Notes under the pieces: model-generated | Database searches by the model: none | What the model was told of the DNA's origin: nothing | The model's input: the letters and a program-made list of their open reading frames with translations, nothing else | Part shown: in pieces, positions 967 to 31,352 of the stretch | How the letters are laid out: each line of letters starts with the position of its first letter | Position numbering within the stretch: position 1 is the stretch's first letter | Position numbers and translations under genes: made by a program | Assembly (NCBI RefSeq): GCF_000018105.1 | Contig: NC_009927.1 | Span: forward strand, 180,001 to 212,000 | Origin: Acaryochloris marina MBIC11017 | GTDB taxonomy: Bacteria; Cyanobacteriota; Cyanobacteriia; Thermosynechococcales; Thermosynechococcaceae | Direction: 5' to 3' | DNA: 32,000 bases

Positions 967-1269
967 ATGAATTCATCAGACACAACTCAAATGCCCCAAT
1001 GGCTGGATGTCTTAGCAAAGCTTGCAACGATAGTCATCGCTATTGTCGCTCTGATTTCAGCTCTAGCTAGTGTCAATTTCTTCGTTGTTAGATCTGTTGT
1101 TGCAGAACAAATTACACCTCAATTCCAGCAAATAGATCAGCGATTTCAACAGGTCGATCAACGACTTCAGCAAATAGATCAGCGGTTCCAGCAGGTCGAT
1201 CAACGATTTCAGCAGATGGATCAACGACTAGAGCGGATTGAAATCAAGCTAGACAAAATCACGAATTAA
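967..1269 (+). CDS. N-terminally membrane-anchored coiled-coil protein with QxDQRFQ heptad repeats
   Basis: GGGAG lies 8 nt upstream of the ATG at 967. TM helix LAKLATIVIAIVALISALASVNFFVV is followed by QIDQRFQQVDQRLQQIDQRFQQVDQRFQQMDQRL. The longer 883 start overlaps the previous gene and is less likely. Confidence 0.55.
   Translation: MNSSDTTQMPQWLDVLAKLATIVIAIVALISALASVNFFVVRSVVAEQITPQFQQIDQRFQQVDQRLQQIDQRFQQVDQRFQQMDQRLERIEIKLDKITN
1124..1230 (+). repeat. tandem 21-nt (heptad-encoding) repeat, about 5 units
   Basis: CAAATAGATCAGCGATTTCAA / CAGGTCGATCAACGACTTCAG / CAAATAGATCAGCGGTTCCAG / CAGGTCGATCAACGATTTCAG / CAGATGGATCAACGACTA, read directly. Confidence 0.8.
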
Positions 1270-3467: not shown

Positions 3468-4721
3468 ATGTTCACCATGACGTACCGCTACCGGATTTAC
3501 CCTAGCCTTGAGCAAGAGACACGGATGTTGTCTTGGCTTGAGACTTGTCGCTCTGTGTACAACTATGCGTTGAGAGAGCGAAAAGATTGGATCGGTAGCC
3601 GTAAGTGCCAGATAGACAGATGTTCTCTGCAGTCTGAGTACATCATTCCTGCAGATGCTCCCTATCCTGGCTATTACCCTCAAAAGAAAAACCTGACTCA
3701 GGCTAAGAAAGTCTTGCCACACCTGAAGGATGTGCATTCTCAAGTATTGCAAGATGTTTTGGGCAGGGTTGATGCGTCTTTTGAGGCCATGAGGCAAAGA
3801 GGTCACGGTTTTCCACGCTTTAAGAAGTTTGGACAATACCGTTCCTTCCTGTTCCCTCAGTTCAAGACCAGCCCAGTTCAGGGTAATCAAATTAAGTTGC
3901 CCAAGATTGGTTGGGTTCCGATTACCTTGCACAGACCCATACCCGATGATTTTGATATCAAGACAGTACGGGTTGTCCGCAAGCATTCGGGCTGGTACGT
4001 CGTGCTGTGTATCCAAGCTGATGTCTCTATCCCTGAAGTCCCACCTCATGGGCATTCGATTGGGATTGATGTTGGTTTGGAATATTTTCTGTCTACAAGT
4101 GATGGCGAGCAAATTGCTAGACCTCGCTTTTTCAACAAGCTCCACCGCAAGCTGGAATTGCTGCAACGGTGCTTGAAGCGAAAGCAAAAAAGGTCGAACC
4201 AACGCGCCAAGCTGATTCAGAGAATAGGGCGAGTGCATGAACAAATTGCGGCATCTCGACTGGACTGGCAATTTAAGCTGGCCCATCACCTGTGTGACCA
4301 AGCCCAAACCATCTTTGCTGAAGATTTGGACTTCCGAATCATGGCAAAAGGGATGCTGGGCAAACATACTCTTGATGCAGGGCTTGGGCAATTCCTGAAT
4401 GTTGTTCTGCCTTGGGTTTGCTTCAAGCGTGGAGTTTACTATGTCAAGGTTGACCCTAATGGCACGTCTCAAGAATGCCCTGACTGTGGAGCCAGGGTAA
4501 AGAAAGACTTGAGTGTTCGGATTCATGAGTGTCATGAGTGCGGGTCCGTAAAGCCGAGAGATGTTGCCAGTGGTCAAGTTATCAATGCCCGTGGTCTATC
4601 GGGTGTTCAAATTGCAAGTGGACGGGATCTATCGGGGTTTCAGGTGACTGATGCTAGACAAGACCGGACGAAGCTTGAATATTTCAAGAGCAATCTTGAG
4701 AAGCCCGCGTTGTATGCGTAG
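3468..4721 (+). CDS. tnpB: TnpB/OrfB RNA-guided endonuclease (IS200/IS605 accessory protein)
   Basis: N-terminal YRYRIYPSLEQE...L.....CRSVYNYAL signature. RuvC-I GIDVGL, RuvC-II IFAEDL, zinc ribbon CPDCG...CHECG, RuvC-III RDVASGQVI. Length is 417 aa. Confidence 0.9.
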   Translation: MFTMTYRYRIYPSLEQETRMLSWLETCRSVYNYALRERKDWIGSRKCQIDRCSLQSEYIIPADAPYPGYYPQKKNLTQAKKVLPHLKDVHSQVLQDVLGRVDASFEAMRQRGHGFPRFKKFGQYRSFLFPQFKTSPVQGNQIKLPKIGWVPITLHRPIPDDFDIKTVRVVRKHSGWYVVLCIQADVSIPEVPPHGHSIGIDVGLEYFLSTSDGEQIARPRFFNKLHRKLELLQRCLKRKQKRSNQRAKLIQRIGRVHEQIAASRLDWQFKLAHHLCDQAQTIFAEDLDFRIMAKGMLGKHTLDAGLGQFLNVVLPWVCFKRGVYYVKVDPNGTSQECPDCGARVKKDLSVRIHECHECGSVKPRDVASGQVINARGLSGVQIASGRDLSGFQVTDARQDRTKLEYFKSNLEKPALYA

Positions 4722-5073: not shown

Positions 5074-5200
5074 GTTTGAGTCCTTATCAATGCACCTACT
5101 TTTTTAATAGGTGGGTTTTGGCTTGGGTCAAAATCCTGTATCGACATTGCGATGCTCTCCGAGCGGCCTTAGGCTATCGCATCGCTGTATCTCGAAATAA

Positions 5201-5623
5201 TTAACCGAATGGATCACCAGCAATAGGTGCTGATGGTAAATCGTCGTCATCGTTATCGCTGTCGGCTTCCCAGGTATCTAAATCTGGGGTTCCTTCGTCA
5301 AGCTGAGCTGTGAGACCTCCGGGAACTGGACCCGCCGCAAAGTTCCCGCTTTCATCACCACTTGCAAGGGTTAGTGCTTCGGCTTCAAGGGCAAGTTTAA
5401 AATGTTTGCCAACCGTAGAAAGCCGTTGAACCTCGTCGAAAGAGGCACCATCTAGTGCGCTCCCCACTGGACCCAATACCGCCCATGCAGCCTGAAAGAA
5501 CACCTCGCTAAAGTCAGCTCCGTAGTATCTCCTCAAGGCATGATACTGACGAGTGTGAATAGAGTCATGAGGGTATCGCCTGCCGACTCTAATTAATTCT
5601 TGATCCGTTTGATTAGCTTTCAT
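5201..5623 (-). CDS. hypothetical protein in the ParR-equivalent position (acidic C-terminus)
   Basis: Overlaps the 3' end of the ParM-like gene by 11 nt, suggesting translational coupling. C-terminal tail is DTWEADSDNDDDDLPSAPIAGDPFG. The adaptor role is inferred from gene order only. Confidence 0.4.
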   Translation of the reverse strand: MKANQTDQELIRVGRRYPHDSIHTRQYHALRRYYGADFSEVFFQAAWAVLGPVGSALDGASFDEVQRLSTVGKHFKLALEAEALTLASGDESGNFAAGPVPGGLTAQLDEGTPDLDTWEADSDNDDDDLPSAPIAGDPFG

Positions 5624-6620
5624 AGGTGCCCCCTTTGATTAGTAGATAGCTATCGGTAAACCGATTCTTGTAGCCGCTAAATTCAGGCGCACTCAGATCG
5701 GGGAAGGCCGCTGACATTTCCTCTAATTCAGTTTTTAGGTATCGCAGCTTCGGCCCGAACTTGGCCTTAAGCTCTGGACCCCAGACCGGATGGCTACCCC
5801 CAGTCACATAAATCTTGGTTGCAGTGGTGAGCGGGCGAAAGCGATCAAACCTCTCGGAAATCTTAGGCCAAACCTTAGCCTTAGCGCTTTTTAGGATCCG
5901 CCTTGCTGATTGCAATTCTTCCTTGTCCGAGAAGGCAAGCTTGAGACCGTTCTTGTTTCGCACTTCACGACAAATCAGCGTAGCCAAAATCAGCTCATCG
6001 GAAACATGGATGCCGCATTCGTTAATCAATGCAATCATGCCCATTCCCGTGAGAGTCAAACTCTGCTTGGTGATAACGCGACCCTCTCGAACATAAAGAA
6101 TCGAGATGTCTTTGTGACCAAACATGATTGCAATGGCTTCGGCATCTTGAATCTGAGATGCAATCCCCGAACCTTCAGGCAGTACCCGGACCCGTCGAAC
6201 TTTCACGTTTGGCTTAAGACCGTTGAACGTGGATCCATAAATACCTTTCTCTAAGTTCGCTTCCAAGGTCTTGAAATACCGTCCTTCTCCTTGAGGAAGC
6301 AGCACCGTTAGATCTACATAGCCCTCAGTAAAGTTCTCAGTCTCGATTGCTTTGCCCAGCATCCCTAATGCTCTTAAGCTTGCTTGTTCGGCTTTTTGTT
6401 GATGGATATTGGTCTCATAAATCCCATTCCCCGCACTAGCCCCCACGGTCCAGGCTCGATCCTTGTACTCAATCACGCAACTATCCGCTGTCAAGTCTCG
6501 GATCTTCTCTTCCTCAACCGCATTATCTTGAGCGATCCAATGCAAATTATTGTCGATGTAGTAGCATCCCTTCCCCAGGCTTGAACCCAAGTCAGTGCAT
6601 ATCGTCAAATCTCGATCCAT
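5613..6620 (-). CDS. actin-fold ATPase, ParM/StbA-like plasmid segregation protein
   Basis: Phosphate-1-like ICTDLGSSLGKG at the N-terminus, LPEGSGIA, and late VTGGS. Size is 335 aa. An iteron array lies immediately upstream. Confidence 0.55.
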   Translation of the reverse strand: MDRDLTICTDLGSSLGKGCYYIDNNLHWIAQDNAVEEEKIRDLTADSCVIEYKDRAWTVGASAGNGIYETNIHQQKAEQASLRALGMLGKAIETENFTEGYVDLTVLLPQGEGRYFKTLEANLEKGIYGSTFNGLKPNVKVRRVRVLPEGSGIASQIQDAEAIAIMFGHKDISILYVREGRVITKQSLTLTGMGMIALINECGIHVSDELILATLICREVRNKNGLKLAFSDKEELQSARRILKSAKAKVWPKISERFDRFRPLTTATKIYVTGGSHPVWGPELKAKFGPKLRYLKTELEEMSAAFPDLSAPEFSGYKNRFTDSYLLIKGGTYES

Positions 6621-7170: not shown

Positions 7171-7221
7171 ACTTCAGCAGTAAATTTGAAAAATGTGGCA
7201 AGAGGGTAAAAGGGTAAAGGG

Positions 7222-8004
7222 CTACTGAAGAGGCCTGGGCGCAGAACAAACGACTCGAAAACCGAGATTGCTGCTGAGGCTCTTGGGGCTGTCGTTGTTG
7301 CGGTAAGCAGAGCGGCAAATCCTCGGATAGTGTTTCCAGGAGCCGCCGCGACGAATCCGACCAGCGCTTTCATTCTTAGACAACCAAGCACTCCCATCTG
7401 TGGGGGCACCTTTGTAACTGTCATGCCAATGGTCTTGGCACCATTCAAAAACATTTCCATACATATCACTCAGACCAAAAGCATTGGCTATGCCGAAGTG
7501 ATCGACAGGGGTTGTTTCTTCGCCCACATAATTAGCGACATCATTAGTGATGGTTTCCCCAAAATAGTAAGGAGTGGTGGTGCCTGCTCGACAAGCATAT
7601 TCCCACTCTGCTTCACTAGGTAATCGATATGGACGCTTCGTTAGGCTATCTAGTCGATTGCAGAATTCAACAGCCTCATACCAAGAAACTTGTTCAACGG
7701 GACGATTTTCGCCTTTAAAGTAAGAAGGTTCTGATTTTAAAGAACGCTCTACTGTTTCTAATTCAGCTACCACTTTCCACTGAGCTTGAGTGACGGGATA
7801 ACGTGACATAAAAAACGCCGGAACCGTCACCTCATGTTGTGGATCTTCGCGGCCCAATCGATCAGGCTCATCTTCTGGAGAACCCATCATAAAGGTGCCG
7901 CCCGGTACGAGAACCATATGGAGAGGCAAAGCATTGGGAATCTCTAACAGGGGTTCAATATATCCACTGCCAGTACGAGGGGTGCGTCGAAGGGTAGGGG
8001 CCAT
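7222..8004 (-). CDS. stand-alone FGE-sulfatase-fold (FGS/C-type-lectin-fold) protein, DGR target 1
   Basis: Family signatures [54 protein letters not shown] and RRGGSW...CRSAYR...[10 protein letters not shown]. No signal peptide or TM. Confidence 0.9.
7235..7355 (-). repeat. DGR variable repeat VR1 (3' end of 7222..8004)
   Basis: Aligns base-for-base with the TR at offset -951. Encodes [37 protein letters not shown]. Confidence 0.75.
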
Positions 8005-8177
8005 AGCAGTTTTTTGTAGGAGGGCCAGCTAAGTTTTCGGTTTCCCTACCAAAGTAGCCAGCCCAGGTTTATTTTTGGACAGCCCAACGGACCATCACTG
8101 GAATAGGCTCTGGACTCTTCTGGGGCACACCCGACAGATTCCCATCTGCCAGTTCTGGCCTGCTATTGCTAGCGGTA

Positions 8178-8306
8178 GAAGAGTGCTGGGCGCAGAACAA
8201 ACGACTCGAAAACCGATATTGTTGTTGCGGTTCTCGGGGTTGTTGTTGTTGCGGTAAGCAGAGCGGCAATTCCTCGGATTGTTGTTCCAGGAGCCGCTGC
8301 TTTGCG
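8178..8306 (-). other. DGR template repeat (TR), non-coding copy of the FGS C-terminus
   Basis: The minus strand reads ...[38 protein letters not shown] with 12 AAC/AAT codons. There is no upstream FGS domain, no start codon and no stop-flank element. Mismatches to the four VRs are almost all at TR adenines. Confidence 0.8.
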
Positions 8307-8407: not shown

Positions 8408-8545
8408 ATGAATACTGAATTGCCCATCATCCAGAAAACCTACGACCTGATTAAATGGTATGTCCCGATCATCAATCGATTGCCCGGAGTTCATCGGTTT
8501 CAACTGGGAGAAAAGAGCAGACCATTAAAATTCGTAAAAGGGTAA
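8408..8545 (+). pseudogene. avd: truncated avd (DGR accessory variability determinant), 45 codons
   Basis: [36 protein letters not shown] matches my recollection of the N-terminus of cyanobacterial four-helix-bundle Avd proteins (about 115-130 aa). The frame degenerates and stops where the conserved 3' flank of the 8558..9394 gene begins. Confidence 0.55.
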
Positions 8546-8557
8546 GAGGGTATAGGA

Positions 8558-9394
8558 CTACGGAAGAGACCTGGGCGCAGAACACACTACACGAAAACCG
8601 ATACTGTTGTCGCGGAACTTGGGGTTGTCGTAGTAGCGGTAAGCAGAGCGGCAATACCTCGGATTGAAGTCCCAGGAGCCGCCGCGACGAACTCGATATG
8701 CACTGTCATTCTCAGATATCCAAGCACTTCCATCTGTGGGGCCACCATCATAATCATGCCAATGGTCTTGGCACCATTCCCAGACATTCCCATGCAGATC
8801 ACTCAGACCAAACGCATTGCCTCCACCAAAGTGATCTACGGGAGTCGTTTGTTGGCGGTATTCTCCTTTGGGGCCACCACCATAGGACCCTGACAAGCCG
8901 ATAGATTCATCACCAATTCCATCGTAATTTGCTAGGTCAGTGGTAATCGTTTCTCCAAAGTGAAATGGGGTTGTGGTGTCCGCTCGACAGGCATATTCCC
9001 ACTCTGCTTCCGTGGGTAAACGATATTGTCGATTTGTGAGGTTGGTGATGCGATCGCAAAACTCAACTGCGTCATACCAAGACACTTTCTCAACTGGGTT
9101 GAGGTCACCTTTGAAATTCGATGGTTCAGAATCTAGCTCCCGATTAACTTGTTCCATCGCTGCTACCACCCGCCATTGGGCTTGGGTGACGGGGTATTGA
9201 GCCATAAAAAACCGAGAAAGGGTTACCTCATGCTGCGGTCCTTCAAAGTCTGAGCGGTCAACTTCCTCATTCGGAGAACCCATCAGAAAAGTTCCAGCAG
9301 GTATCTGCATCATCCGCAAAGGCAGCACGCCCTCAGCAAGAATCTCGTCGTAGAACTGGAGTGGGGCTTTGGTTTTGGTTATCGTATAACTCAC
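8558..9394 (-). CDS. stand-alone FGE-sulfatase-fold protein, DGR target 2
   Basis: Same signatures: [52 protein letters not shown] and RRGGSW...CRSAYR...[10 protein letters not shown]. Confidence 0.9.
   Translation of the reverse strand: MSYTITKTKAPLQFYDEILAEGVLPLRMMQIPAGTFLMGSPNEEVDRSDFEGPQHEVTLSRFFMAQYPVTQAQWRVVAAMEQVNRELDSEPSNFKGDLNPVEKVSWYDAVEFCDRITNLTNRQYRLPTEAEWEYACRADTTTPFHFGETITTDLANYDGIGDESIGLSGSYGGGPKGEYRQQTTPVDHFGGGNAFGLSDLHGNVWEWCQDHWHDYDGGPTDGSAWISENDSAYRVRRGGSWDFNPRYCRSAYRYYDNPKFRDNSIGFRVVCSAPRSLP
8571..8691 (-). repeat. DGR variable repeat VR2
   Basis: Aligns with the TR. Encodes [37 protein letters not shown]. Confidence 0.75.
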
Positions 9395-9436
9395 TGGAAA
9401 ATTCTTAAGAAAGTAATAGGGTAAAAGGGTAAAGGG

Positions 9437-12400
9437 CTACGGAAGAGACCTGGGCGCGGAACAAACGACTCGAAAACCGATAAGGTTGTCGCGGCCACCG
9501 GGGCCGTCGTTGAGGCGGGAAGCAGAGCGGCAATTCCTCGGAGGGCCGAGCCAGGAGCCGCCGCGACGCATCCGACGAGTGCTTTCATTCTCAGACAACC
9601 AAGCACTCCCATCCGTGGGTGCATCATAGTAATTGACATGCCAATAGTCTTGGCACCATTCCCAAACATTTCCATGCATGTCACTGAGACCAAACGCATT
9701 GGCAAAACTAAAATAATCTATAGGTGTTGTTTCTCCTCTTCTTTCACCTTTTGGACCATCTACAAAAGCACTTCCGCTGTAGTTAGCGACATCAGTAGTG
9801 ATCATGTCACCAAAGTGGAACGGGGTAGTGGTGCCCGCTCGACAGGCATATTCCCATTCGGCCTCCGTGGGTAATCGGTATTCACGGCCCGTGTATCTAG
9901 AAAGACGGTCACAAAACTCTATCGCGTCGAACCAGGATACTTTTTCTATTGGCCTATTATCCCCTTTGAATCTAGCTGGATCAGTCTCTAGTTCACGCTC
10001 AATCTGAGGTTGATTTGCAACGACTCGCCACTGAGCCTGGGTAATCGGGTAACGGCCTATAAAAAAGGACTCAACTGTAACTTGATGCTGAGGACCTTCA
10101 CGAACAAGCCTCTCAGGTTCAGTGTTTGGTGAACCCATCATAAAGGTACCAGCAGGTATTGATACCATTTCTAAATCTATTTTATCTAGTAGCCGCTCTA
10201 TATATCTATTTGCTGACTGTTGGTGTTGTTCCGTTTCCCATTTTTTCTGGCTCAAAATCAACTTAGCAACTGTAAAATCAAAGGATTCCACATTGATCGC
10301 ATCAGATATAGATTCCTCTGGCTGCAACCTTAAAATCGTGAAATCTCCTGTTTGCAACGGTGGCGGAAAGATATCTTGTTGAGAAGGCGGTACAAGGAGT
10401 GGATCATCCCAAAGGAAGGCTAGATCCCTAGCCCAATGGAATAATGGATTATCCTCTGTTGCTGCAAGACGAACGGCGAACACCTTCATGGGAATCTGCT
10501 CCATTGTTCCGTTGAGGATGTTCTCATTAAGAAACTGTTGCCAATTATCAGTGATTTTTTCTTTACGACTCCACAATACAATTGGAGTACCATTTTCAAG
10601 TACTCCTCTAACTTCTGCACTTTGGAAACCAGAGCCAAGGGTCAAGCCTAATCGAGAGCCTTGACTTAACGAGATCAGATCTTCAGGTTGACCAAAGGGC
10701 CAATTATCAAATGCATCGTTGGAATTATCGTTCCAACGTTCTTGCAACTGTGCCCACTGTAATTGCAATTTTTGGGTATATTGAAGACTCTCAACGCGCT
10801 CTTTTAAGCGCAACACTACAAAATTACAGTCCCTGCCAATCCCTATAGGATCATCGGTATTTGATAGAGAGGGGATGCCCATCTGTTCTATCGGTAAATC
10901 TAGTAAACTCTGGGGAAGAAACAGATGGATAGTGAAAACAGTCTTTTCAGTTTGGGTACGGGCTTGCTCTAATAAGCTGGCTAAAACACTTGGAATATCT
11001 TGAAAGGTAATCCCCTCAGATAATCTAGAGTCGCTACTACCATTTCCGTATCGATTGATATCCAAGGTAGATAAATACTGAACACCTTCTCCTGTCTGGG
11101 CATTGTAATTCTTGGGATTTGGCACCAACCAAGCGTCGACAAAGTACTGATCGGCCTTGGGACTACGTTCATCAAACGAGATAAGTAAAGTAGTGAGGGG
11201 CACTTTCGGAAGAATTTCTATGTCATTGGCAAGTACCCCTTCATCAAACTCGAATGCTTCGAGTTCAGGGAAGTTGATATATTCTGAAACTTGGTAGGTT
11301 AGGGTCTCATGGGTGAAACCTTCCAACCAAGCCACTTCATTTTGACGATTTTCTAAGCCTGAATCGTCTTGCCTCTGTTGACTCTCTAATTGGCGCACGA
11401 TTTCAGCAAAATCTGACCCAGCTGTACGTAAAATCTGAGCCGTCACTTTGGCAAAGGCTTTTAATCCATATTGGTCTACCTCATCTTTCAGATCAGGAGA
11501 TAGTAAGAGAGCTTGGAAATCAGCCAGTGTACAATTCAATCGTTCTGCGACATGTTGAGATACTTTTTCGATCACCTCAAGCTTGTCTACATTGGGTAGA
11601 ACATCCAGCAGGCGGTTGCGTACCGTCTCTGGAAAAAGATATTGTACGACTTCAGACTCTAACTCTGGTGGTTGTTCAGGTGCTTTGGTTAGTAGCCCTC
11701 CCAAAAACACCTCGGCCACAGGTAGGGGGGATGAACCAGGTAAGAACTCATCTGAAGCACGGATAAGTCGCATTACAGGCAGAGTTATAACAGGTGCTGC
11801 GGATAACAACGCAGCTAATCGCCGAGCTTCTGGCGTTGCCCTTAACCGAAAGTCTTCTAGCAAGCCATCAACAATTTCTTCTGACTCCAATTCGCTGGAT
11901 GTTGGGGTTGCGGACCATCCTGTTGAAGGCAACATAAAGCCTGGAGCTGAGTAGCGTCGATCTCCCGCTAACATTCGGCTCCAAGCACCAAGATATTCAC
12001 TATCACTCGTGATGATAGGAATACAGACTGGTGATGAGGATTGGGTTTCCTGGGTTTGGTCTGGTTCTTGATCACTCCGACGGCGACCACGATTCACAGT
12101 TGATCGCAAAGACATATAAATTGGGGTTAGTTTGGTGTTTTTTGCTCCCGGTGTTCGACTACGAACAGCCACATACTCTCCAATCCCTAATGCAGTTCGT
12201 TTCCACATCCAATCGGGTAACACTTGCCAGATCGCCGTGGGTGTTGAATCTCCCCAAAGGGACAATATTGGCTGCAACGAACCATCCCACCAGTAGTTGG
12301 CTGTGCAATCACTAAAGACTAAGATCAATCGCCGAGCATCGGGAGTTAAAAGTGCGTTAGGAGAGCGTAGTACTGGATCTGGGGCAGCACAGATGCCCAC

Positions 12401-13042
12401 TTCCCCCTGCTTCACATTGAGTTGCCAAACTCGAAAATCACGAAAAGAGCCATAACAGCGTAGCAACCTCCTTATATCTTGGATTAACCTCTGCCAAAGA
12501 TCCATCGCTGGGCTGCTATCAATGACCAAGGCCACTTCATACCACGGTTCTTGGTCCGGTTCTAGGATCGGGGACCAGATATCAGTTTCAGCAATGCGCT
12601 CAACTGTCTCAGCTTCATTCACTGAACTGCAAAACTGGGAATCAATTTGCTTCAAGATAGGCTTCAGTGCCCTGACTAGGGGTAAGGTTTCATCCAGAAT
12701 GTCAGGGTCAGGAATAGAGATGGGTAAAGCTTTTTGGGGAAGTTTCCCCGAAGGCAACTCCGGTGCAACGCCAAAGTCCGGTTCGTCTACCTCGTCATTC
12801 TGGTTATCATTGTCGTCATCCTCTTCGTTTCCTGCATCCTCTTCGTTTCCATTTTCCAAGTCGAGATTGTCATCATCAACATCCTCAAGCTCCAGGTTGT
12901 CATCAGGATCTTTGTTCTCTTGATCGACATCACTAACATCAAATTTCTCTGGTTCGCGCAATGCCAGCCATAGGATTTCAGCTATTTCAGTAGGGTCTAG
13001 CTTATATTCAGTCAGAGCGGACACAAATTGCTCAGTACTCAT
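9437..13042 (-). CDS. large multidomain protein: short N-terminal helical module, acidic linker, vWA-like domain, long middle region, C-terminal FGE-sulfatase-fold sensor (DGR target 3)
   Basis: vWA-like strand/MIDAS region YEVALVIDSSPAMDLW with a later LILVFSDCTANYW. D/E/N-rich linker at aa 36-90. The C-terminal 270 aa carry all FGS signatures ([10 protein letters not shown] ... RRGGSW...CRSASR...[10 protein letters not shown]). The start lies 14 nt after the MoxR stop. Confidence 0.85.
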   Translation of the reverse strand: MSTEQFVSALTEYKLDPTEIAEILWLALREPEKFDVSDVDQENKDPDDNLELEDVDDDNLDLENGNEEDAGNEEDDDNDNQNDEVDEPDFGVAPELPSGKLPQKALPISIPDPDILDETLPLVRALKPILKQIDSQFCSSVNEAETVERIAETDIWSPILEPDQEPWYEVALVIDSSPAMDLWQRLIQDIRRLLRCYGSFRDFRVWQLNVKQGEVGICAAPDPVLRSPNALLTPDARRLILVFSDCTANYWWDGSLQPILSLWGDSTPTAIWQVLPDWMWKRTALGIGEYVAVRSRTPGAKNTKLTPIYMSLRSTVNRGRRRSDQEPDQTQETQSSSPVCIPIITSDSEYLGAWSRMLAGDRRYSAPGFMLPSTGWSATPTSSELESEEIVDGLLEDFRLRATPEARRLAALLSAAPVITLPVMRLIRASDEFLPGSSPLPVAEVFLGGLLTKAPEQPPELESEVVQYLFPETVRNRLLDVLPNVDKLEVIEKVSQHVAERLNCTLADFQALLLSPDLKDEVDQYGLKAFAKVTAQILRTAGSDFAEIVRQLESQQRQDDSGLENRQNEVAWLEGFTHETLTYQVSEYINFPELEAFEFDEGVLANDIEILPKVPLTTLLISFDERSPKADQYFVDAWLVPNPKNYNAQTGEGVQYLSTLDINRYGNGSSDSRLSEGITFQDIPSVLASLLEQARTQTEKTVFTIHLFLPQSLLDLPIEQMGIPSLSNTDDPIGIGRDCNFVVLRLKERVESLQYTQKLQLQWAQLQERWNDNSNDAFDNWPFGQPEDLISLSQGSRLGLTLGSGFQSAEVRGVLENGTPIVLWSRKEKITDNWQQFLNENILNGTMEQIPMKVFAVRLAATEDNPLFHWARDLAFLWDDPLLVPPSQQDIFPPPLQTGDFTILRLQPEESISDAINVESFDFTVAKLILSQKKWETEQHQQSANRYIERLLDKIDLEMVSIPAGTFMMGSPNTEPERLVREGPQHQVTVESFFIGRYPITQAQWRVVANQPQIERELETDPARFKGDNRPIEKVSWFDAIEFCDRLSRYTGREYRLPTEAEWEYACRAGTTTPFHFGDMITTDVANYSGSAFVDGPKGERRGETTPIDYFSFANAFGLSDMHGNVWEWCQDYWHVNYYDAPTDGSAWLSENESTRRMRRGGSWLGPPRNCRSASRLNDGPGGRDNLIGFRVVCSAPRSLP
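9450..9570 (-). repeat. DGR variable repeat VR3
   Basis: Aligns with the TR. Encodes [37 protein letters not shown]. Confidence 0.75.
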
Positions 13043-13056
13043 TTACAGCCAGCCTC

Positions 13057-14238
13057 TCAGGTCAAACGCCTTAGCAAAATCTGTTTGAGCATTTCAAGTT
13101 CAGTTTCTTTATCCTCTTCACTCAAACCCGAACCCGATAGCTGAGACTGGCGAACCATGTAAATTAAATTGAGGAGCTGATCCGTTGCCAAAGAAGACTG
13201 TTTACGCTGAAGATCCTTGGCAAAGTTCTCAATCAATTGTGCAACTTTTGGTTCTAATTCTGACCAGGGCAGTTCTGTCTTAGGGCGGTCTTTCCGCTCA
13301 AAATGAGCACCTACTATATGGGTTAAAACGGCACTGTCAGAAGGATCTGGCATCGTGATTCGCAGACAGCGGCGCAAAAAGGCGGGGGGAAAGTCACGTT
13401 CTCCGTTACTAGTCATAATCACCAAGGGGAACTCATAACAAGTAACCTTGCCTTGCTCAATGTCAGCAGGGAGACCTTCATCCTCTGTACGGACTGGAAC
13501 AGGCACATCCGTTTTGTAGCGGACGAGTTCAGGTATCTCAAAACTACCTTCTTCAAAGAGGTTGAGAAGATCATTCGGTAAATTCAGCTCGCTTTTATCA
13601 ATTTCATCTATCAGCAATACTCGGGGTAAATGGGAAGGTAAAAAAGCGGTACCTACCGGGCCAAGTTGGATATAATCGCCAAGATTTCTACCTTGTTTTA
13701 ATTCATCAATTTTGTTGTGATCTAATGGCTGATCGTCCGACTTTGCCAGCAGCAACTGGAGTTCAAGTTCCGATTTATCAAATTGGGTGTCCTGCAAACG
13801 GGCAATCGCATCATAGCGATACTGGGCATCAGAAAGCTTGGAACGAGTGGTAATGGGCCAGAGCAAAACTGGCCCCAGTTGTAATTCATAGGCGATCGCA
13901 TAGGCTAAAGAGGTCTTACCTGAACCTGGATTTCCCGTGATAAGTAGTGGACGTCGCAATGCCAAGGCTGAGTTTATAGCTGAAATAATTTCAGATTGCC
14001 TACCTTCAGATTGACGGATACGAAAGCTTTCGCCACGTTCTTTTGAACGAGTATCAAGACGATTTGAGTCTCGCAATTGCTTCCAGCGAGTTTTACTAGC
14101 ACCAGCCCACTTATCCTCAAAGATTGCTTGTGACATAAACTGCCGCCATGCGGGTCGCTCCTGAATAGGTTTCAGGGCGGCTTGGCGGGGTGTCCTATCT
14201 TCATTGGGTTGGGCTGTAAAAAATTTCCAGTCAGTCAT
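13057..14238 (-). CDS. MoxR-like AAA+ ATPase
   Basis: Walker A LLITGNPGSGKTSLA, Walker B VLLIDEIDKS, sensor-1 VIMTSN, Arg-finger region PPAFLRRC. Single AAA+ module of 393 aa. Operonic with the vWA gene, which is the classic MoxR-vWA pairing. Confidence 0.85.
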   Translation of the reverse strand: MTDWKFFTAQPNEDRTPRQAALKPIQERPAWRQFMSQAIFEDKWAGASKTRWKQLRDSNRLDTRSKERGESFRIRQSEGRQSEIISAINSALALRRPLLITGNPGSGKTSLAYAIAYELQLGPVLLWPITTRSKLSDAQYRYDAIARLQDTQFDKSELELQLLLAKSDDQPLDHNKIDELKQGRNLGDYIQLGPVGTAFLPSHLPRVLLIDEIDKSELNLPNDLLNLFEEGSFEIPELVRYKTDVPVPVRTEDEGLPADIEQGKVTCYEFPLVIMTSNGERDFPPAFLRRCLRITMPDPSDSAVLTHIVGAHFERKDRPKTELPWSELEPKVAQLIENFAKDLQRKQSSLATDQLLNLIYMVRQSQLSGSGLSEEDKETELEMLKQILLRRLT

Positions 14239-14264
14239 AGTGGAATCACCAATCTTTTGGGCTT

Positions 14265-16211
14265 TTAAGTCGGTTGCGTCAACCGACCGGATTCATTGAC
14301 AGCTAATGTAGGTAAGCACGGTATCCGGGTGCAATTATCAAATAAAAACCCCAGTTCTTGAATCTTTTTTCGGTGGGTCAAAATTGACTCTCCCAAGGCA
14401 GCAGATTCCGTAAAATTCTCGGGTTTCAACACTTTATCCACAGTCTTTTTGAATTCATCCCCATTTACAGGAGTTTCATAAGTCCACAACCAAAGTGGCA
14501 CTTTCTCTTCAATCACTCCTGAAATTAAGCTTCTTAATTCATCTATATCTTCTGGCAATGTCTCCCAAAGTTTAAAGACCAGTTTCTCCGGTAATTCGTC
14601 TTCAAATATTTCATCCGTGAAACACTCTACGCAACAGGTATGTTGATCTAGAGGTTGTTGCATAGTTTTTAACTGCTGCATTCTAACCTTTAAATCTTTA
14701 ATCCATAATTCAGACCAAAGTGGATCTAATAATCGATCTAATGAGCGAACAACAGTGTTGTATGGAAATCGCCAAAGTGGCTTACGACGTGTTTTTCCTA
14801 AACTCGTCCAAATTTTCCATTTGTGAACAGGCTGCCCAAAATGTTGCCAAGACAAGAAAATCTCAACCGCTCTCACTTCCCCCGCATTGGGAATTACTTC
14901 TGATAAGTGCTCCCATACTTGTTCAATCGAGCATTTAGGATAATCGGTTAATAAACTTGTTCTTGTTTGTTCTCCGCAAACATAGAGTTCCGCCAAAATT
15001 CGAACGGTATCTACCGTAGCACTTGCATCACCAGGTTCCGTATCTACAACAGGCTCTAATGTGACCAGAAGATATTTCTGACTCGGTTCTTGCTTTGGGT
15101 CAACTTCAAGCTCGGTGGGTGCGTTAGCGTCATACCATACCTGCCATTCAGGTTTTATTTCACATTCATTCTCATTGTTAGGAAAGTCTTGTAACTTTTT
15201 GATCAGATGACCGACCCAAGACACTGCCAACACCTGATCGTCCAACCGAATAAGGGCCTGCTTCAACGCGGCGAAGGTTTCAATCGAGCCTAGTAAATCG
15301 TCTTTACGATTGTCTAAAACCTCCCTCAGTGCAGCTTCAAGAAAATCTAGATCATAATCTCCCAAGCATATAAATAAATCGTCCCAAAACTTAGTCTCAA
15401 CCTTATAAGAAGTTTTCCCTACTCCAGGAATTCTGGGTTTAGGGTCATAATTTGCCAACAGGTGAAAAGCTAAAGCACTGGCATGATGAGAAGCCTTTTG
15501 CTGACGCTTATCTTCAGATTTTTGCCCCTTGCCATCATTCTTATGATCAATCAAGTCTGAGATGCCCCGAATCACAATAGCGGATAGTGGTTTGTCACGG
15601 GCATTGACAGCCTCAAGGAATCCATATCCTTCCATCTCCACGGCCAAAGCATCACTATAATTTTTTCGCAGCAATTTATAAACGTTCGACTCTTTTGAAG
15701 CCACTACCTTTTCGCCAACAGCGATTGGCCCCACCCTAAGGCGAGGGGTTGTATTATAAGGCTGTTTAACTCTTGCCAACCAATTTGGTGCTTCACTTCG
15801 GGCTTCTGCCTTGGCTTCCTCTACCAGGCTGAAGCCACTCAAGCCAATGTGAGGTCGTGGTTTGAATTCTTCCTCAGCCTTACCGGATTCATAGCCATAG
15901 ATTTTTGTAGACGCAACGACATCACCTATATCTACATCTTTTAGACCTCCCGCTACACCGACAAAGAAAACAACATCAGGATCAAAATATGTAATGGCCC
16001 GTTCTGTTTGTAGGGCAGATCTTGAGTCACCAGCTCCAGTCTGCACGATGCCTACTGTCCATATGCGACCATTCGCTTTAAATGTCCCCTTCTCATATCG
16101 ATTTCCTTCAGGATGAATAATGCGCGTGGGATCGGCGACAAACTTTCTTACTTCTTTAAATTCAACGGGTAATGCTGTCAGAATGACGGCTTTCAAGGAA
16201 TCCTGAACCAT
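14265..16211 (-). CDS. nucleoside phosphorylase/nucleosidase-fold (PNP_UDP_1-like) effector fused to a ~400-aa C-terminal region (vWA-MoxR-associated, VMAP-like)
   Basis: N-terminal 250 aa: AVILTALPVEF, VQTGAGDSRSAL, FFVGVAGGL, AVEMEGYGF and VIRGISDL. These are the conserved strands and loops of the MTA/SAH-nucleosidase / PNP fold. The stop lies 26 nt upstream of the MoxR start. Confidence 0.8.
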   Translation of the reverse strand: MVQDSLKAVILTALPVEFKEVRKFVADPTRIIHPEGNRYEKGTFKANGRIWTVGIVQTGAGDSRSALQTERAITYFDPDVVFFVGVAGGLKDVDIGDVVASTKIYGYESGKAEEEFKPRPHIGLSGFSLVEEAKAEARSEAPNWLARVKQPYNTTPRLRVGPIAVGEKVVASKESNVYKLLRKNYSDALAVEMEGYGFLEAVNARDKPLSAIVIRGISDLIDHKNDGKGQKSEDKRQQKASHHASALAFHLLANYDPKPRIPGVGKTSYKVETKFWDDLFICLGDYDLDFLEAALREVLDNRKDDLLGSIETFAALKQALIRLDDQVLAVSWVGHLIKKLQDFPNNENECEIKPEWQVWYDANAPTELEVDPKQEPSQKYLLVTLEPVVDTEPGDASATVDTVRILAELYVCGEQTRTSLLTDYPKCSIEQVWEHLSEVIPNAGEVRAVEIFLSWQHFGQPVHKWKIWTSLGKTRRKPLWRFPYNTVVRSLDRLLDPLWSELWIKDLKVRMQQLKTMQQPLDQHTCCVECFTDEIFEDELPEKLVFKLWETLPEDIDELRSLISGVIEEKVPLWLWTYETPVNGDEFKKTVDKVLKPENFTESAALGESILTHRKKIQELGFLFDNCTRIPCLPTLAVNESGRLTQPT

Positions 16212-16853: not shown

Positions 16854-16908
16854 ACTAGCCAGATTTCCAGTCATTATAAAAATTGCAAGAGGGAAAAAGG
16901 GTAAAGGG

Positions 16909-17709
16909 CTACTGAAGAGGCCTGGGCGCTGAACAAACTACTCGAAAACCGATATGGCTGAGGCGGCTCTCGGGGGAGTTGTAGGAGCGGCAAGCAGAGC
17001 GGCAATCCCACGGATAGCTGTACCAGGAGCCGCCGCGAATAACGCTAGAGTCATCAATTCTATCCCCCTCCCAAAAGGGGCTACCATCTGATGGCACGTC
17101 AAGGTAATCAGAGCCGTAGTAGTCTTGGCACCATTCCCAGACATTGCCATGCATATCATATAACCCCCAACGATTAGGGGAATAACTTTCAACAGCACTT
17201 GTTTGGCCTATCATTTCATCTTCTAAGTAATTTGCCAGTTTGGGAGTGATTTTTTGCCCAAAATGATATGCAGTCTGAGTTTCAGCTCTACAGGCATATT
17301 CCCACTGGGTTTCACTAGGTAAGTGAAAATTTTTTCCAGTCTTTGATGACAGGCGCTTGCAAAATTCTACTGCTTCATACCAACTTACCGACTCTACAGG
17401 GAAGTCATCACTTTCGAATGCTGAAGGTGATAGATCTACAGTTCCATCTTGTTCTTCATACCCGGCTACTACCCGCCACTGTTCCTGAGTAACAGGTGTA
17501 GTTCCCATCAAAAATTGAGGTAATTGGATACATTTTTGGCGTTGTTTATCTTGGGTGTCACCTGATTCATTTTCATCATTACTAATCCACAATTCCCCTG
17601 CAGGAATAAGCATTAATGTCAGTGGCACATCATCACCGAGATCTATGGTGTAGCTCTCATTCGTACACTCATATTCAAAGAGGGTGAGGGAATCAACAGT
17701 ATTAGCCAC
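16909..17709 (-). CDS. stand-alone FGE-sulfatase-fold protein, DGR target 4
   Basis: [42 protein letters not shown] and IRGGSW...CRSACR...[10 protein letters not shown]. More diverged in its N-terminal half than the other paralogues. Confidence 0.9.
   Translation of the reverse strand: MANTVDSLTLFEYECTNESYTIDLGDDVPLTLMLIPAGELWISNDENESGDTQDKQRQKCIQLPQFLMGTTPVTQEQWRVVAGYEEQDGTVDLSPSAFESDDFPVESVSWYEAVEFCKRLSSKTGKNFHLPSETQWEYACRAETQTAYHFGQKITPKLANYLEDEMIGQTSAVESYSPNRWGLYDMHGNVWEWCQDYYGSDYLDVPSDGSPFWEGDRIDDSSVIRGGSWYSYPWDCRSACRSYNSPESRLSHIGFRVVCSAPRPLQ
16922..17042 (-). repeat. DGR variable repeat VR4
   Basis: Encodes [37 protein letters not shown]. In the 81-nt variable core, all 16 mismatches to the TR are at TR adenines (hand alignment). 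Confidence 0.8.
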
Positions 17710-26183: not shown

Positions 26184-26310
26184 AAAATTACCCCATATAG
26201 ATTGTCTCTACTAGGGGTATAGGGGCTTGTTGTGGTGGGCCAAAATTAGGGAGCTGAATTGCCTTGAGCTGTTGGCCTAGGGTTGCCTCGTCGCGACACT
26301 ACTAGGCTTA

Positions 26311-29885: not shown

Positions 29886-29915
29886 TAGATAGGGGCTTTT
29901 TTCAGAGGATCAAAA

Positions 29916-31352
29916 TCAGGATTTTGCAACAATATCGACATTGCCCGAAAACTTCCAGTATTGGCCGGTCGGCCCTCGCTGCTGCCCTCTAGGCACCAAG
30001 TTAGAAATGTGACTGCCGCCCCGGACATTGCCTAACTGATCTGACGCTACTTCGCCGCCAACGGCCAACGCAGCTCCCAGGATTCGATTGCCAAAGCTAG
30101 TACCGCCTTGGGTCTTGTACTGGGCCAAAAGATAGGTGGTGTTCTTCTGCTCGATCATGTATTGACCTGGCCCAACTGGCTGATTGTTGAGCTTTGTCAG
30201 CTCTGCGGTGAACTGAGTTCCATTGAGAGATGTAATCTTGGCCTCTGCTGACTGCCCCTTGTGCGGCCCACTAGTGATCGTCAGTGGAATAATGACCCTC
30301 TGAGCCTCATCCTGTGATCTCCATTCCACATGTCTGACAACCTTAGCGGACATTTTAGAAACTGTAGGCGTATTGGATGAGGTAGGCGAATTAGAGCCGC
30401 TAAATTCCTGATCGTATTGATCCATCGTTTGGATCTCACCGGCCAAGAAGTTGACCTGATGACTTGGCTTAGCTTTGACTACTGAGGGCCTAGCGTAAGC
30501 AGTTTTAATGGGTCGCTTATAAGGCGTCAACTTAACGGGTTTAATGGGCTTGGGAGTGGTGGGCGTTGGTGTTGTCTGACCGAGTGTGATCGGCTTGGTT
30601 GGGGCTTGAGTCTTGATACTAATCCGATGTTTTGCACAAGCAGGGACATTGATACCGCCTTGCAAAAACTCGACACAGTTTTCTAACGTTGGCTTAGGCT
30701 CAGCTTTGAGCGCTGTCCTAGGCTTAGCCGGTGCAACAGCCGGTCTATATGCTCTCACTGGAGCTGGGGCTGTATAGCGAGGTCTGTTAAGGCGAACTGT
30801 GTTTCGAGGTGTCACCGTCCTTCTAGCGGGCACTCTCGCCGGTCCTCTGGGGGGTGTCTGGGGTGCTGTCGTTGTCGTCCCTGGTCTAGCCGCTGGATTT
30901 GTTGCTATTCCTGGCTGTTGAGCCGTTGGCTTACCCGTGGCATTGGGGTTTTGCTGACCTTCTAAAGGTATCGACTCAAATTGCGCCCCTTGGGTCAACG
31001 ATGAATTATCCCCCAACTGCTGGGACTTCTCGCTCTCTAACTGGCTTATCTTTGCCTTTAAACCTGCAATTTGTTCAGTTTCACCAGCCACCACAATCTT
31101 AGGCTTACGATTGCCGGTAAATACCCGATGAACCCCAATAGCCGAAACGCCGACAAAAACTAGGATCACAGCTCCATAAAAGTAGGTACTCTTAAACCAT
31201 TCATGGGTCTTTCGGCCTTCTGGAGCAATACCCGTCTCAATTGTCGAGATAGGCCTATCATCCTCTATCGGCTGGGCCAAGGTTTCGATAACGCTATCTT
31301 GCTCCTGGGTAGTGAAAATCTCTCTCCCTTCTTGTGCTTCAACTTGGCTCAT
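29916..31352 (-). CDS. bitopic membrane protein with Pro-rich linker, VirB10/TrbI-like architecture
   Basis: N-terminal cytoplasmic part, one TM (YFYGAVILVFVGVSAIGV), coiled segment, an approximately 200-aa Pro/Thr/Ala/Arg-rich region, then a C-terminal globular domain. The assignment rests on architecture only. Confidence 0.4.
   Translation of the reverse strand: MSQVEAQEGREIFTTQEQDSVIETLAQPIEDDRPISTIETGIAPEGRKTHEWFKSTYFYGAVILVFVGVSAIGVHRVFTGNRKPKIVVAGETEQIAGLKAKISQLESEKSQQLGDNSSLTQGAQFESIPLEGQQNPNATGKPTAQQPGIATNPAARPGTTTTAPQTPPRGPARVPARRTVTPRNTVRLNRPRYTAPAPVRAYRPAVAPAKPRTALKAEPKPTLENCVEFLQGGINVPACAKHRISIKTQAPTKPITLGQTTPTPTTPKPIKPVKLTPYKRPIKTAYARPSVVKAKPSHQVNFLAGEIQTMDQYDQEFSGSNSPTSSNTPTVSKMSAKVVRHVEWRSQDEAQRVIIPLTITSGPHKGQSAEAKITSLNGTQFTAELTKLNNQPVGPGQYMIEQKNTTYLLAQYKTQGGTSFGNRILGAALAVGGEVASDQLGNVRGGSHISNLVPRGQQRGPTGQYWKFSGNVDIVAKS

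Follow-up and report, generated by a model that had tools for sequence, protein, structure and literature searches.

A 32,000-nt stretch of the cyanobacterium Acaryochloris marina MBIC11017 (contig NC_009927.1, positions 180,001 to 212,000; hereafter the window) carries the template repeat (TR) and four variable repeats (VRs) of a diversity-generating retroelement (DGR), and directly past the stop codon that closes each VR lies a short tandem array in which the word TTTACCC recurs. This array follows every VR and is lacking after the TR, arrays with a period of 7-8 nt stand in the same place across a large DGR lineage, the sequence is conserved both among the targets of single DGRs and from one DGR to the next, and it is predicted to be unpaired. 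We judge the chances to be slightly better than even that the array forms the recipient-specific distal part of a target signal of the initiation-of-mutagenic-homing (IMH) type, an extended IMH that the TR lacks. The IMH, its TR counterpart IMH* and a downstream hairpin are already known, and a periodic direct-repeat array as a VR-specific flank appears to be new. The literature that we searched on the IMH, on direct or tandem repeats and on the sequence downstream of VRs, paywalled papers lying outside the search, describes no such array, and a search for CCCTTTACCC returned only unrelated papers among the matches listed.

The last ~123 nt of four minus-strand genes with FGE-sulfatase (FGS) domains are copies of one repeat family, whose fifth, non-coding copy, rich in AAC codons, is the TR (8178..8300, minus strand). 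Most differences between the VRs and the TR fall at TR adenines: 10 of 14 mismatches in VR1 (7222..7349), 13 of 17 in VR2 (8558..8685), 19 of 22 in VR3 (9437..9564) and 17 of 20 in VR4 (16909..17036), all on the minus strand. In coding orientation the four genes end ...GTTTGTTC(T/C/A)GCGCCCAGG(C/T)CTCTTC(A/C)G TAG, and ends of the GCGCCCAGNNCTCTTC type occur five times in the window where 0.00 are expected. VR1 has a TAG stop at 7222-7224 and a proximal IMH, GCGCCCAGGCCTCTTC, at 7227-7242; VR4 has the same proximal IMH sequence, that of VR2 reads GCGCCCAGGTCTCTTC, VR3 has a proximal IMH as well, and all of them close with TAG.

Past these stops stand two to three units of CCCTTTA, CCCTTTTA or CCCTCTTG. 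The array of VR1 (7197..7221, minus strand; 7221..7197 reads CCCTTTACCCTTTTACCCTCTTGCC) divides into CCCTTTA CCCTTTTA CCCTCTTG CC, that of VR3 (9413..9436, minus strand; 9436..9413 reads CCCTTTACCCTTTTACCCTATTAC) into CCCTTTA CCCTTTTA CCCTATTAC, and that of VR4 (16885..16908, minus strand; 16908..16885 reads CCCTTTACCCTTTTTCCCTCTTGC) into CCCTTTA CCCTTTTT CCCTCTTGC, the third unit also being read as CCCTCTTG. At VR2 the array is degenerate, TCCTATA CCCTCTTA CCCTTTTAC (8534..8557, minus strand; 8557..8534 reads TCCTATACCCTCTTACCCTTTTAC). A first-pass annotation of the window had taken this copy for the consensus with an extra TATAGGA. Comparison with plasmid pREC1 of A. marina MBIC10699, the closest PLSDB relative of the window (83% identity), reveals instead a degenerated array one unit shorter than its orthologue, which has an extra unit and reads CCCTTTAC TCTTTTAC CCTCTTAC CCTTTTG. 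The same arrays follow all three VRs of pREC1, with varying numbers of units. The VR1 array is 100% identical to its pREC1 orthologue, and the ~55 nt beyond it differ at ~10 positions; for target 4, the 90 nt upstream of the VR are ~60% identical to the other targets and the array is 78-96% identical. TTTACCC occurs 13 times in the window against 3.9 expected, with tandem pairs at VR ends only, and alignment bears out the annotated post-stop element after all four VRs, far from chance.

The TR ends in its IMH*, GCGCCCAGCACTCTTC (8178-8193), and continues with TACCGCTAGCAATAGC, free of repeats as had been annotated. The array occupies the position of an IMH, at the 3′ end of the VR and directly past the zone of A-to-N differences: the final adenine-type mismatch between TR and VR is a CA/GY dinucleotide, 6 nt short of where the homology stops, and the array begins 5 nt further on, behind the TAG. 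The GC-rich GCGCCCAG, 8 nt long (14 in the BPP-1 DGR), is common to the TR and the four VRs. Between the VR and TR ends, only GG(C/T)CTCTTC and GCACTCTTC can be aligned, and nothing after the TR corresponds to the TTTACCC array; a distal segment alignable to IMH* was found neither in the window nor in 44 related TRs. The classical IMH/IMH* pair here is GCGCCCAGG(C/T)CTCTTC versus GCGCCCAGCACTCTTC, upstream of the stop. Because the TTTACCC array lies beyond this pair, it can be at most the distal part of an extended IMH. The asymmetry between IMH and IMH* first proposed for the element therefore stands insofar as the array is VR-specific, absent from the TR and recurrent across the clade, but not as to the place of the classical pair.

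TR and VRs do share the end CTCTTC, again as proposed, but they already differ before the homology ends, with GC or GT in the VRs and CA in the TR. This difference is constant: the TR reads CAGCACT (8183-8184) and the VRs CAGG(C/T)CT (7232-7233, 8568-8569, 9447-9448 and 16919-16920). At the same position, related DGRs have AGCACT or AGTACT in the TR and AGGACT in the VR. The CA versus G(C/T) difference may be a second conserved discriminator between IMH and IMH*.

Periodic arrays across a DGR lineage

Six reverse transcriptases (RTs) of the lineage were aligned and used to collect 80 metagenomic loci (L100-L179) with RTs 48-72% identical to the query, a sample not selected for the motif. Pairs of TR and VR, defined by at least 80% of mismatches falling at adenines of one copy, are present in 43 of the 80. 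Directly past the homology stand, almost without exception, three to six pyrimidine-rich units of 7-9 nt, such as CCCTTTTG CTCTTTTG CCCTTTG, ACACTTTT ACACTTTG and, with more distant RTs, TTCTGATT GCTGATT CCTGATT. The best autocorrelation lag (between 4 and 12) is 7 or 8 in 55 of 58 distinct VR flanks, and is scattered in the 44 TR flanks. Mean autocorrelation at lags 7 and 8 reaches 0.418 and 0.425 in VR flanks (n = 58; z = 14.5 and 17, with a harmonic at lag 15), compared with 0.258 and 0.264 in TR flanks (n = 44), 0.296 ± 0.008 in shuffles, and 0.278 and 0.267 at 558 other open reading frame (ORF) ends of the same loci. Chains of at least three identical trinucleotides at 7-8 nt spacing, a test independent of the unit sequence, are found in 90% of VR flanks, 23% of TR flanks, 13% of shuffles and 14% of other ORF ends; for chains of at least four, these fractions are 53%, 2%, 0.8% and 3.9%.

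The array-bearing lineage has targets of the FGE/CLec type, many of them in MoxR-VMAP conflict loci, with three to six pyrimidine-rich units of 7-8 nt. On the sense strand the arrays are 40% T, 26% C, 19% G and 15.5% A. The repeated element drifts between sub-lineages (CTT, CTG, TGC, TTG, CCC, ATT, CATGA) and the period is kept. The word TTTACCC, annotated as the motif itself, does recur after FGS targets, but what defines the array is its 7-8-nt period, the units differing from lineage to lineage.

A scan of one genome per prokaryotic species for the exact 19-mer CCCTTTACCCTTTTWCCCT yielded 98 stretches with 100 matches, where by our estimate ~9 are expected by chance. Twenty-two matches lie at most 35 nt after the stop of an ORF with an FGS domain, in Pseudanabaena, Leptothoe, Nodosilinea, Moorena and other cyanobacteria and also in Chthoniobacter, Sedimenticola and a Methylococcaceae genome, and the VR sequences at these loci are quite different from those of the window. 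Where a TR lies within the fetched stretch (L006, L030, L037 and L054), all mismatches are confined to TR adenines, 5-10 nt separate the end of the homology from the motif, and no motif follows the TR. No TR was found in the fetched stretch for L047, L010, L071 and several others, whose targets are inferred rather than verified DGR targets. The 19-mer persists from one host phylum to another where RT identity is only ~49% (L047; L166, where the TR is verified).

The other 78 matches comprise 30 arms of inverted repeats (mostly in Pyrinomonadaceae), 24 long C-rich tandem arrays and 24 other contexts. The exact word is not DGR-specific, yet its association with FGS gene ends is overwhelming. A generic repeat found after unrelated genes had been named at the outset as the outcome that would speak against a role in homing; the 78 matches elsewhere go some way towards this, but not all the way. 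In many Acidobacteriota genomes, long imperfect inverted repeats (GGGTAAAAGGG ... CCCTTTACCC) have CCCTTTACCC words as their 3′ arm and look like a dispersed family of hairpin repeats unrelated to DGRs (L007, L012, L021, L025, L058 and other Pyrinomonadaceae and Acidobacteriota).

When the window flanks are folded as single-stranded DNA (ssDNA), the array is unpaired in all four, consistent with the initial view that the element is not a hairpin, and three of the four flanks fold worse than shuffles. The known DGR hairpin or cruciform has a GC stem of 7-10 bp and a GRNA loop and lies 4-34 bp from the VR (PMC3240598); ssDNA folds of the four window flanks contain no GC hairpin of that stem length, loop and distance. 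The array is like this structure in being a VR-flanking, TR-absent cis element downstream of the IMH, and unlike it in being a direct repeat predicted to be unpaired, where the known element is an inverted repeat. In the wider clade, 26 of 58 VR flanks contain a perfect GC-rich hairpin (1.2 expected), with a GAA, GTA, GCA or GGA loop in 14 of the 26. This is the classical DGR hairpin, and it starts behind the array, at a median of 58 nt past the homology, which is farther than the published 4-34 bp. The array is commoner than the hairpin in this clade; an earlier survey found hairpins in only 34% of DGRs (PMC5758913).

All alternatives to an extended IMH that we considered are less well supported. 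The array could be a generic host repeat, or an element associated with 3′ untranslated regions or terminators, with no role in homing: something akin to repetitive extragenic palindromic (REP) elements, to the short tandemly repeated repetitive (STRR) sequences of cyanobacteria, or to a U/C-rich terminator leader. We regard this as unlikely. STRR sequences are short tandemly repeated heptamers in cyanobacterial intergenic DNA and resemble the array in having tandem intergenic units of ~7 nt in cyanobacteria, but the array differs from them in its unit sequence, its linkage to VR ends, its occurrence with non-cyanobacterial DGRs and its mixture of 7- and 8-nt units. The 78 matches away from FGS genes would suit a generic repeat, and a terminator would suit the GC hairpins behind the array in 26 of 58 flanks, which in directly read examples are followed by a terminator-like T-run. 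However, no terminator-like site or hairpin was found after the four window arrays, whose tandem copies are confined to VR ends within the window. Furthermore, arrays follow 90% of VRs and 14% of other ORF ends at the same loci, and the recurrence of the same 19-mer after FGS targets in Cyanobacteria, Gammaproteobacteria and Verrucomicrobia fits a DGR lineage and not a host repeat.

Slightly less probable still is a non-B DNA structure, such as an antisense G-quadruplex, a sense i-motif or slipped strands, that would keep the site open as a substitute for the BPP-1 hairpin or cruciform. The array does sit in the place of the hairpin in a window that has none. At 7-8 nt spacing, three C3 runs occur in the arrays of VR1, VR3 and VR4, and a fourth run lies 15-16 nt away; with the CCC in GCGCCCAGG, these three VRs have four runs, and several relatives have four or five. 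VR2, by contrast, has only two C3 runs, and the window arrays lack the four G or C runs of at least three with short loops that define a G-quadruplex or i-motif. Array and hairpin also occur together in 26 of 58 flanks, which counts against a substitute. Since many arrays of the clade contain no C3 or G3 runs (for example ACACTTTT, AATCTGAT, ATTTTGA and CATGAT), a G-quadruplex or i-motif cannot be the common principle and was ruled out as a general mechanism.

Conservation within DGRs was assessed in 11 DGRs with at least two VRs (20 pairs of paralogous targets). Mean identity is 0.68 over the 90 nt upstream of the VR, 0.83 in the VR, 0.88 over the first 27 nt past the homology (the highest of the segments), 0.62 over the next 34 nt, and 0.32 from +61 to +110; arrays from different loci average 0.52. 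The flank is conserved beyond what paralogy accounts for, in line with the first-pass annotation, which had noted 25-30 nt of conserved non-coding sequence past the stop of otherwise diverged genes. Because homing copies TR sequence only, and the TR has no array, homing cannot account for the homogeneity of the arrays. Selection for a DGR-specific flank is the simplest explanation of the 27-nt conservation.

Neutral hitch-hiking, in which duplicates carried ~25 nt of 3′ flank with them or gene conversion from VR to VR ran slightly past the VR, is improbable. It would draw on the fact that the targets are paralogues and on the gradual decay of conservation (0.88, 0.62, 0.32), as in a conversion tract. 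The flank nevertheless exceeds the coding sequence upstream of the VR in identity (0.88 versus 0.68), the same architecture is found in DGRs with RT identities of only ~50% and with unrelated VR sequences, and the period is kept while the unit sequence changes.

The primase DnaG has trinucleotide preferences, and the array might be a cluster of trinucleotides (CTG, TTA, CCC) for the host primase or replisome on the lagging-strand template, such that an Okazaki fragment would start beside the site of cDNA annealing. Many units do contain CTG or TTG. DGR editing is favoured in the orientation that makes the strand complementary to the cDNA the template for lagging-strand synthesis (PMC12875486), and the arrays are always on that strand. 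Identical CCCTTTACCCTTTTTCCCT in hosts of three phyla is contrary to host-specific tuning, however, the geometry has no obvious benefit, and no direct evidence points to such a cluster, making it very improbable. A recombination handle moving whole FGS cassettes, as suggested by the first-pass annotation, is the least credible of all: targets are dispersed (one lies 7.5 kb away) with IS200/IS605 elements nearby, but a one-sided 25-nt array is a poor recombination substrate, no matching element stands at the 5′ ends of the FGS genes, and a clade-wide period with drifting sequence misfits a site-specific recombination site.

Distant DGRs, BPP-1 and other known systems

In a more distant sample of 80 viral loci, with RTs 32-50% identical, TR/VR pairs were present in 71. 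Phage-type DGRs with C-terminal VRs often have short arrays before the hairpin, with units such as AATCTGAT, ATTTTGA, CATTCA and CATGAT. In this sample, 33% of VR flanks contain trinucleotide chains of at least three, against 3% of TR flanks and 5% of shuffles. This test was more informative than per-flank significance, which is weak in phage-type DGRs (9 of 91 at p <= 0.01 in a 48-nt window) because the arrays are short.

The classical IMH/IMH* is a GC-rich imperfect repeat between TR and VR, and that of BPP-1 consists of (GC)14 and a 21-bp directionality element; this 21-bp segment has five mismatches with the TR and sets the direction of transfer (PMC3240598). In the BPP-1 sequence, the 21-bp IMH reads TCTGTGACCACCTGATTCTTG(AG) and contains three TGAs at spacings of 8 and 7 nt, and IMH* reads TCTGTGCCCATCACCTTCTTG(CA). 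Of the five positions at which IMH and IMH* differ, four are within the first or second TGA and one is located 2 nt upstream of the second; IMH* also loses the third TGA, just beyond the 21 bp. The BPP-1 segment thereby resembles the arrays in its period, which IMH* does not keep. The hairpin of BPP-1 directly follows the stop.

The window array is like the BPP-1 IMH in its position at the VR 3′ end past the mutagenised zone, where a GC-rich part shared with the TR is followed by a part distinct between VR and TR. The VR retains the BPP-1 IMH after homing, and by analogy the array may be retained in the same way. The array differs in that it is non-coding, lies after the stop, cannot be aligned with the TR, and is longer (three to six units) and pyrimidine-rich. 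A periodic IMH is not mentioned in the literature that we searched. BPP-1 needs a specific recipient sequence, mere non-homology to the TR not being enough. In work by Doulatov from 2004, placing the IMH on the TR reportedly made the TR a recipient.

The Trichodesmium DGR has 12 VRs and a conserved 3′ stretch of 35 bp, and those VRs that have non-adenine changes are also mutated in this stretch (PMC4143802). The likeness to the window consists in a conserved 3′ sequence common to all VRs. Neither this study nor that of the conflict-system DGRs (PMC10907252) describes a periodic array or its absence from the TR, and the window copy differs from both systems in being without an RT.

The array as a putative extended IMH

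The array of the window would be the local form of a tandem array that stands directly past the TR/VR homology in a large DGR lineage. It would mark the VR as the acceptor of adenine-mutagenised cDNA, distinguishing it from the TR, and would act beside the 3′ cDNA junction point, with or without a downstream GC hairpin. As judged from sequence, homing may require the array. Three to six units at 7-8 nt suggest an oligomeric reader, and a factor of this kind would recognise the repeats, probably in the sense strand as ssDNA. Of what the DGR itself encodes, the pentameric Avd-RT complex is the evident candidate, in place of base pairing with the DGR RNA, though this is speculation; retention of the 19-mer across host phyla fits a reader encoded by the DGR.

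It is conceivable, though we would sooner doubt it, that this holds for DGRs in general, so that the recipient-defining part of the IMH is a sense-strand array with a period of 7-8 nt read by an oligomeric DGR factor, and the three TGAs of BPP-1 and the CCCTTTA arrays are one signal. Five Avd protomers at 7-8 nt each would then cover ~35-40 nt, and the effect of the five mismatches between IMH and IMH* of BPP-1 would lie in the loss of repeat units.

Several observations weigh against reading the array as an extended IMH. The 55 of 58 flanks with a best lag of 7 or 8, and the other counts from the RT-anchored sample, overstate independent support, the loci being phylogenetically related. The 78 of 100 exact matches in inverted repeats, C-rich tandem arrays and other contexts belong here as well. 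The array is not universal, none having been found in the Bacteroides-type DGRs with internal VRs among the loci of the viral sample. The periodicity of BPP-1 is a single case and suggestive only, since 5-13% of shuffled 75-nt windows also contain a chain of three. As a reader, Avd is no more than a candidate, and Avd-bearing DGRs without arrays exist. Finally, the conservation of the arrays in the window may be residual, its own RT being gone.

How DGRs choose their recipient and integrate cDNA was still incompletely understood in 2026 (PMC12875486), and one survey remarks that recognition has to reach further downstream in cases where IMH and IMH* do not differ (PMC5758913). A VR-specific array that is commoner than the hairpin in a large natural clade provides a concrete, testable cis element. 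It could improve the prediction of remote targets and guide the engineering of DGR-based mutagenesis outside BPP-1. The broader proposal, if true, would define in terms of sequence what turns DNA into a DGR target, and the BPP-1 parallel, should it hold, would reinterpret the classical IMH.

RNA downstream of the TR and state of the DGR

Downstream of the TR lies a putative structured RNA of ~170 nt (8005..8177, minus strand), for which 22 sequences support 27 of 30 predicted pairs with compensatory changes. It is kept across the DGR clade, in the TR flanks of L030, L037, L054, L006 and L101-L179. In the predicted structure, ACUCUU at the end of IMH* and AAGAGU farther downstream form pairs that enclose a hairpin whose loop is UGGGAAU; next comes a second long hairpin. 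By analogy, this RNA is probably the counterpart of the BPP-1 spacer, which recruits RT-Avd and primes cDNA synthesis. No Rfam family matches 8005-8177, nor any other part of the window.

Recognition of the array by this RNA was considered and rejected. A loop downstream of the TR, AGGGAAA / AGGGUAAAA, seemed complementary to TTTACCCT, but the loop is not conserved in L030, L037 and L006, which bear the motif. Furthermore, RNAduplex pairs arrays with the RNA of their own DGR no better than with the RNAs of other loci (mean rank 0.53, 0.43).

The window is part of a conjugative plasmid that encodes a MobF relaxase, a coupling protein and a ParM-like protein. The four targets, all on the minus strand and all with a C-terminal FGS domain recognised by Pfam, are target 1 (7222-8004), target 2 (8558-9394), target 3 (9437-13042; 1201 aa, with VMAP-C and FGS) and the remote target 4 (16909-17709), which lies 7.5 kb from the others. 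Target 3 belongs to an operon-like minus-strand set (9437-16211) together with a MoxR-like AAA ATPase (13057-14238) and a protein with PNP_UDP_1 and VMAP-C (14265-16211). The set makes up a MoxR-VMAP conflict system whose sensor is diversified by the DGR. The neighbourhood resembles the systems of PMC10907252 in having a MoxR-like ATPase, VMAP-C proteins and both a short and a long FGS target.

Adenine-biased TR/VR pairs are present in the window, whereas a DGR-type RT is absent and avd is truncated. The avd remnant (8411..8533, plus strand) retains ~35 codons from the start of the gene, joined to the final few bases of the RT, as seen from a weak bAvd match and alignment to the intact avd and RT end of pREC1. 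A deletion of ~1.4 kb, with its junction at ~8505-8520, took the rest of avd and all of the RT. The TR and four VRs remain, and the VR2 array adjoins the deletion scar. With the RT and most of avd deleted, the window DGR is no longer autonomous, though an RT elsewhere in the genome may act on it in trans. At the equivalent locus of pREC1, avd and RT are intact and lie on the strand opposite the TR and targets; the pREC1 avd is split near its start by an IS200/IS605 insertion.

This strand arrangement recurs: the TR and all targets are opposite to avd/RT in the window (8178-8300, minus, versus 8411-8533, plus) and in L001 (9577-9699, minus, versus 11621-13059, plus), which requires the TR RNA to be transcribed separately and divergently. 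The TR-RNA of Trichodesmium (PMC4143802) likewise suggests that the window TR may be transcribed separately. No promoter was identified for the divergent TR transcript. L054 differs, with target, avd, RT and TR in this order on the same strand. In the Sedimenticola locus (L047), long palindromic elements (reverse complement 4570-4645 and 5465-5755) occupy the expected place of the TR downstream of the RT, where there is no TR. Its target retains the array and the GC hairpin, and the locus may be another DGR that is missing a component.

Elsewhere in the window, an IS200/IS605-type TnpB (OrfB_IS605, with a Cas12f-like TNB domain) is encoded at 3468-4721 on the plus strand, with no adjacent tnpA ORF of at least 80 aa; the 384-aa ORF that overlaps it on the opposite strand is probably spurious. 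Four to five tandem repeats of 21 nt at 1123-1241 (plus strand), within the ORF at 883-1269, encode QQ(I/V)DQRF heptads and probably form a coiled coil. A family of 32-nt direct repeats (ATAGGGGCTT...GG.CAAAAT...GG) stands at 5107-5138, 26219-26250 and 29889-29920, in each case intergenic and by the start of a minus-strand gene, and may represent a shared regulatory or plasmid-specific site.

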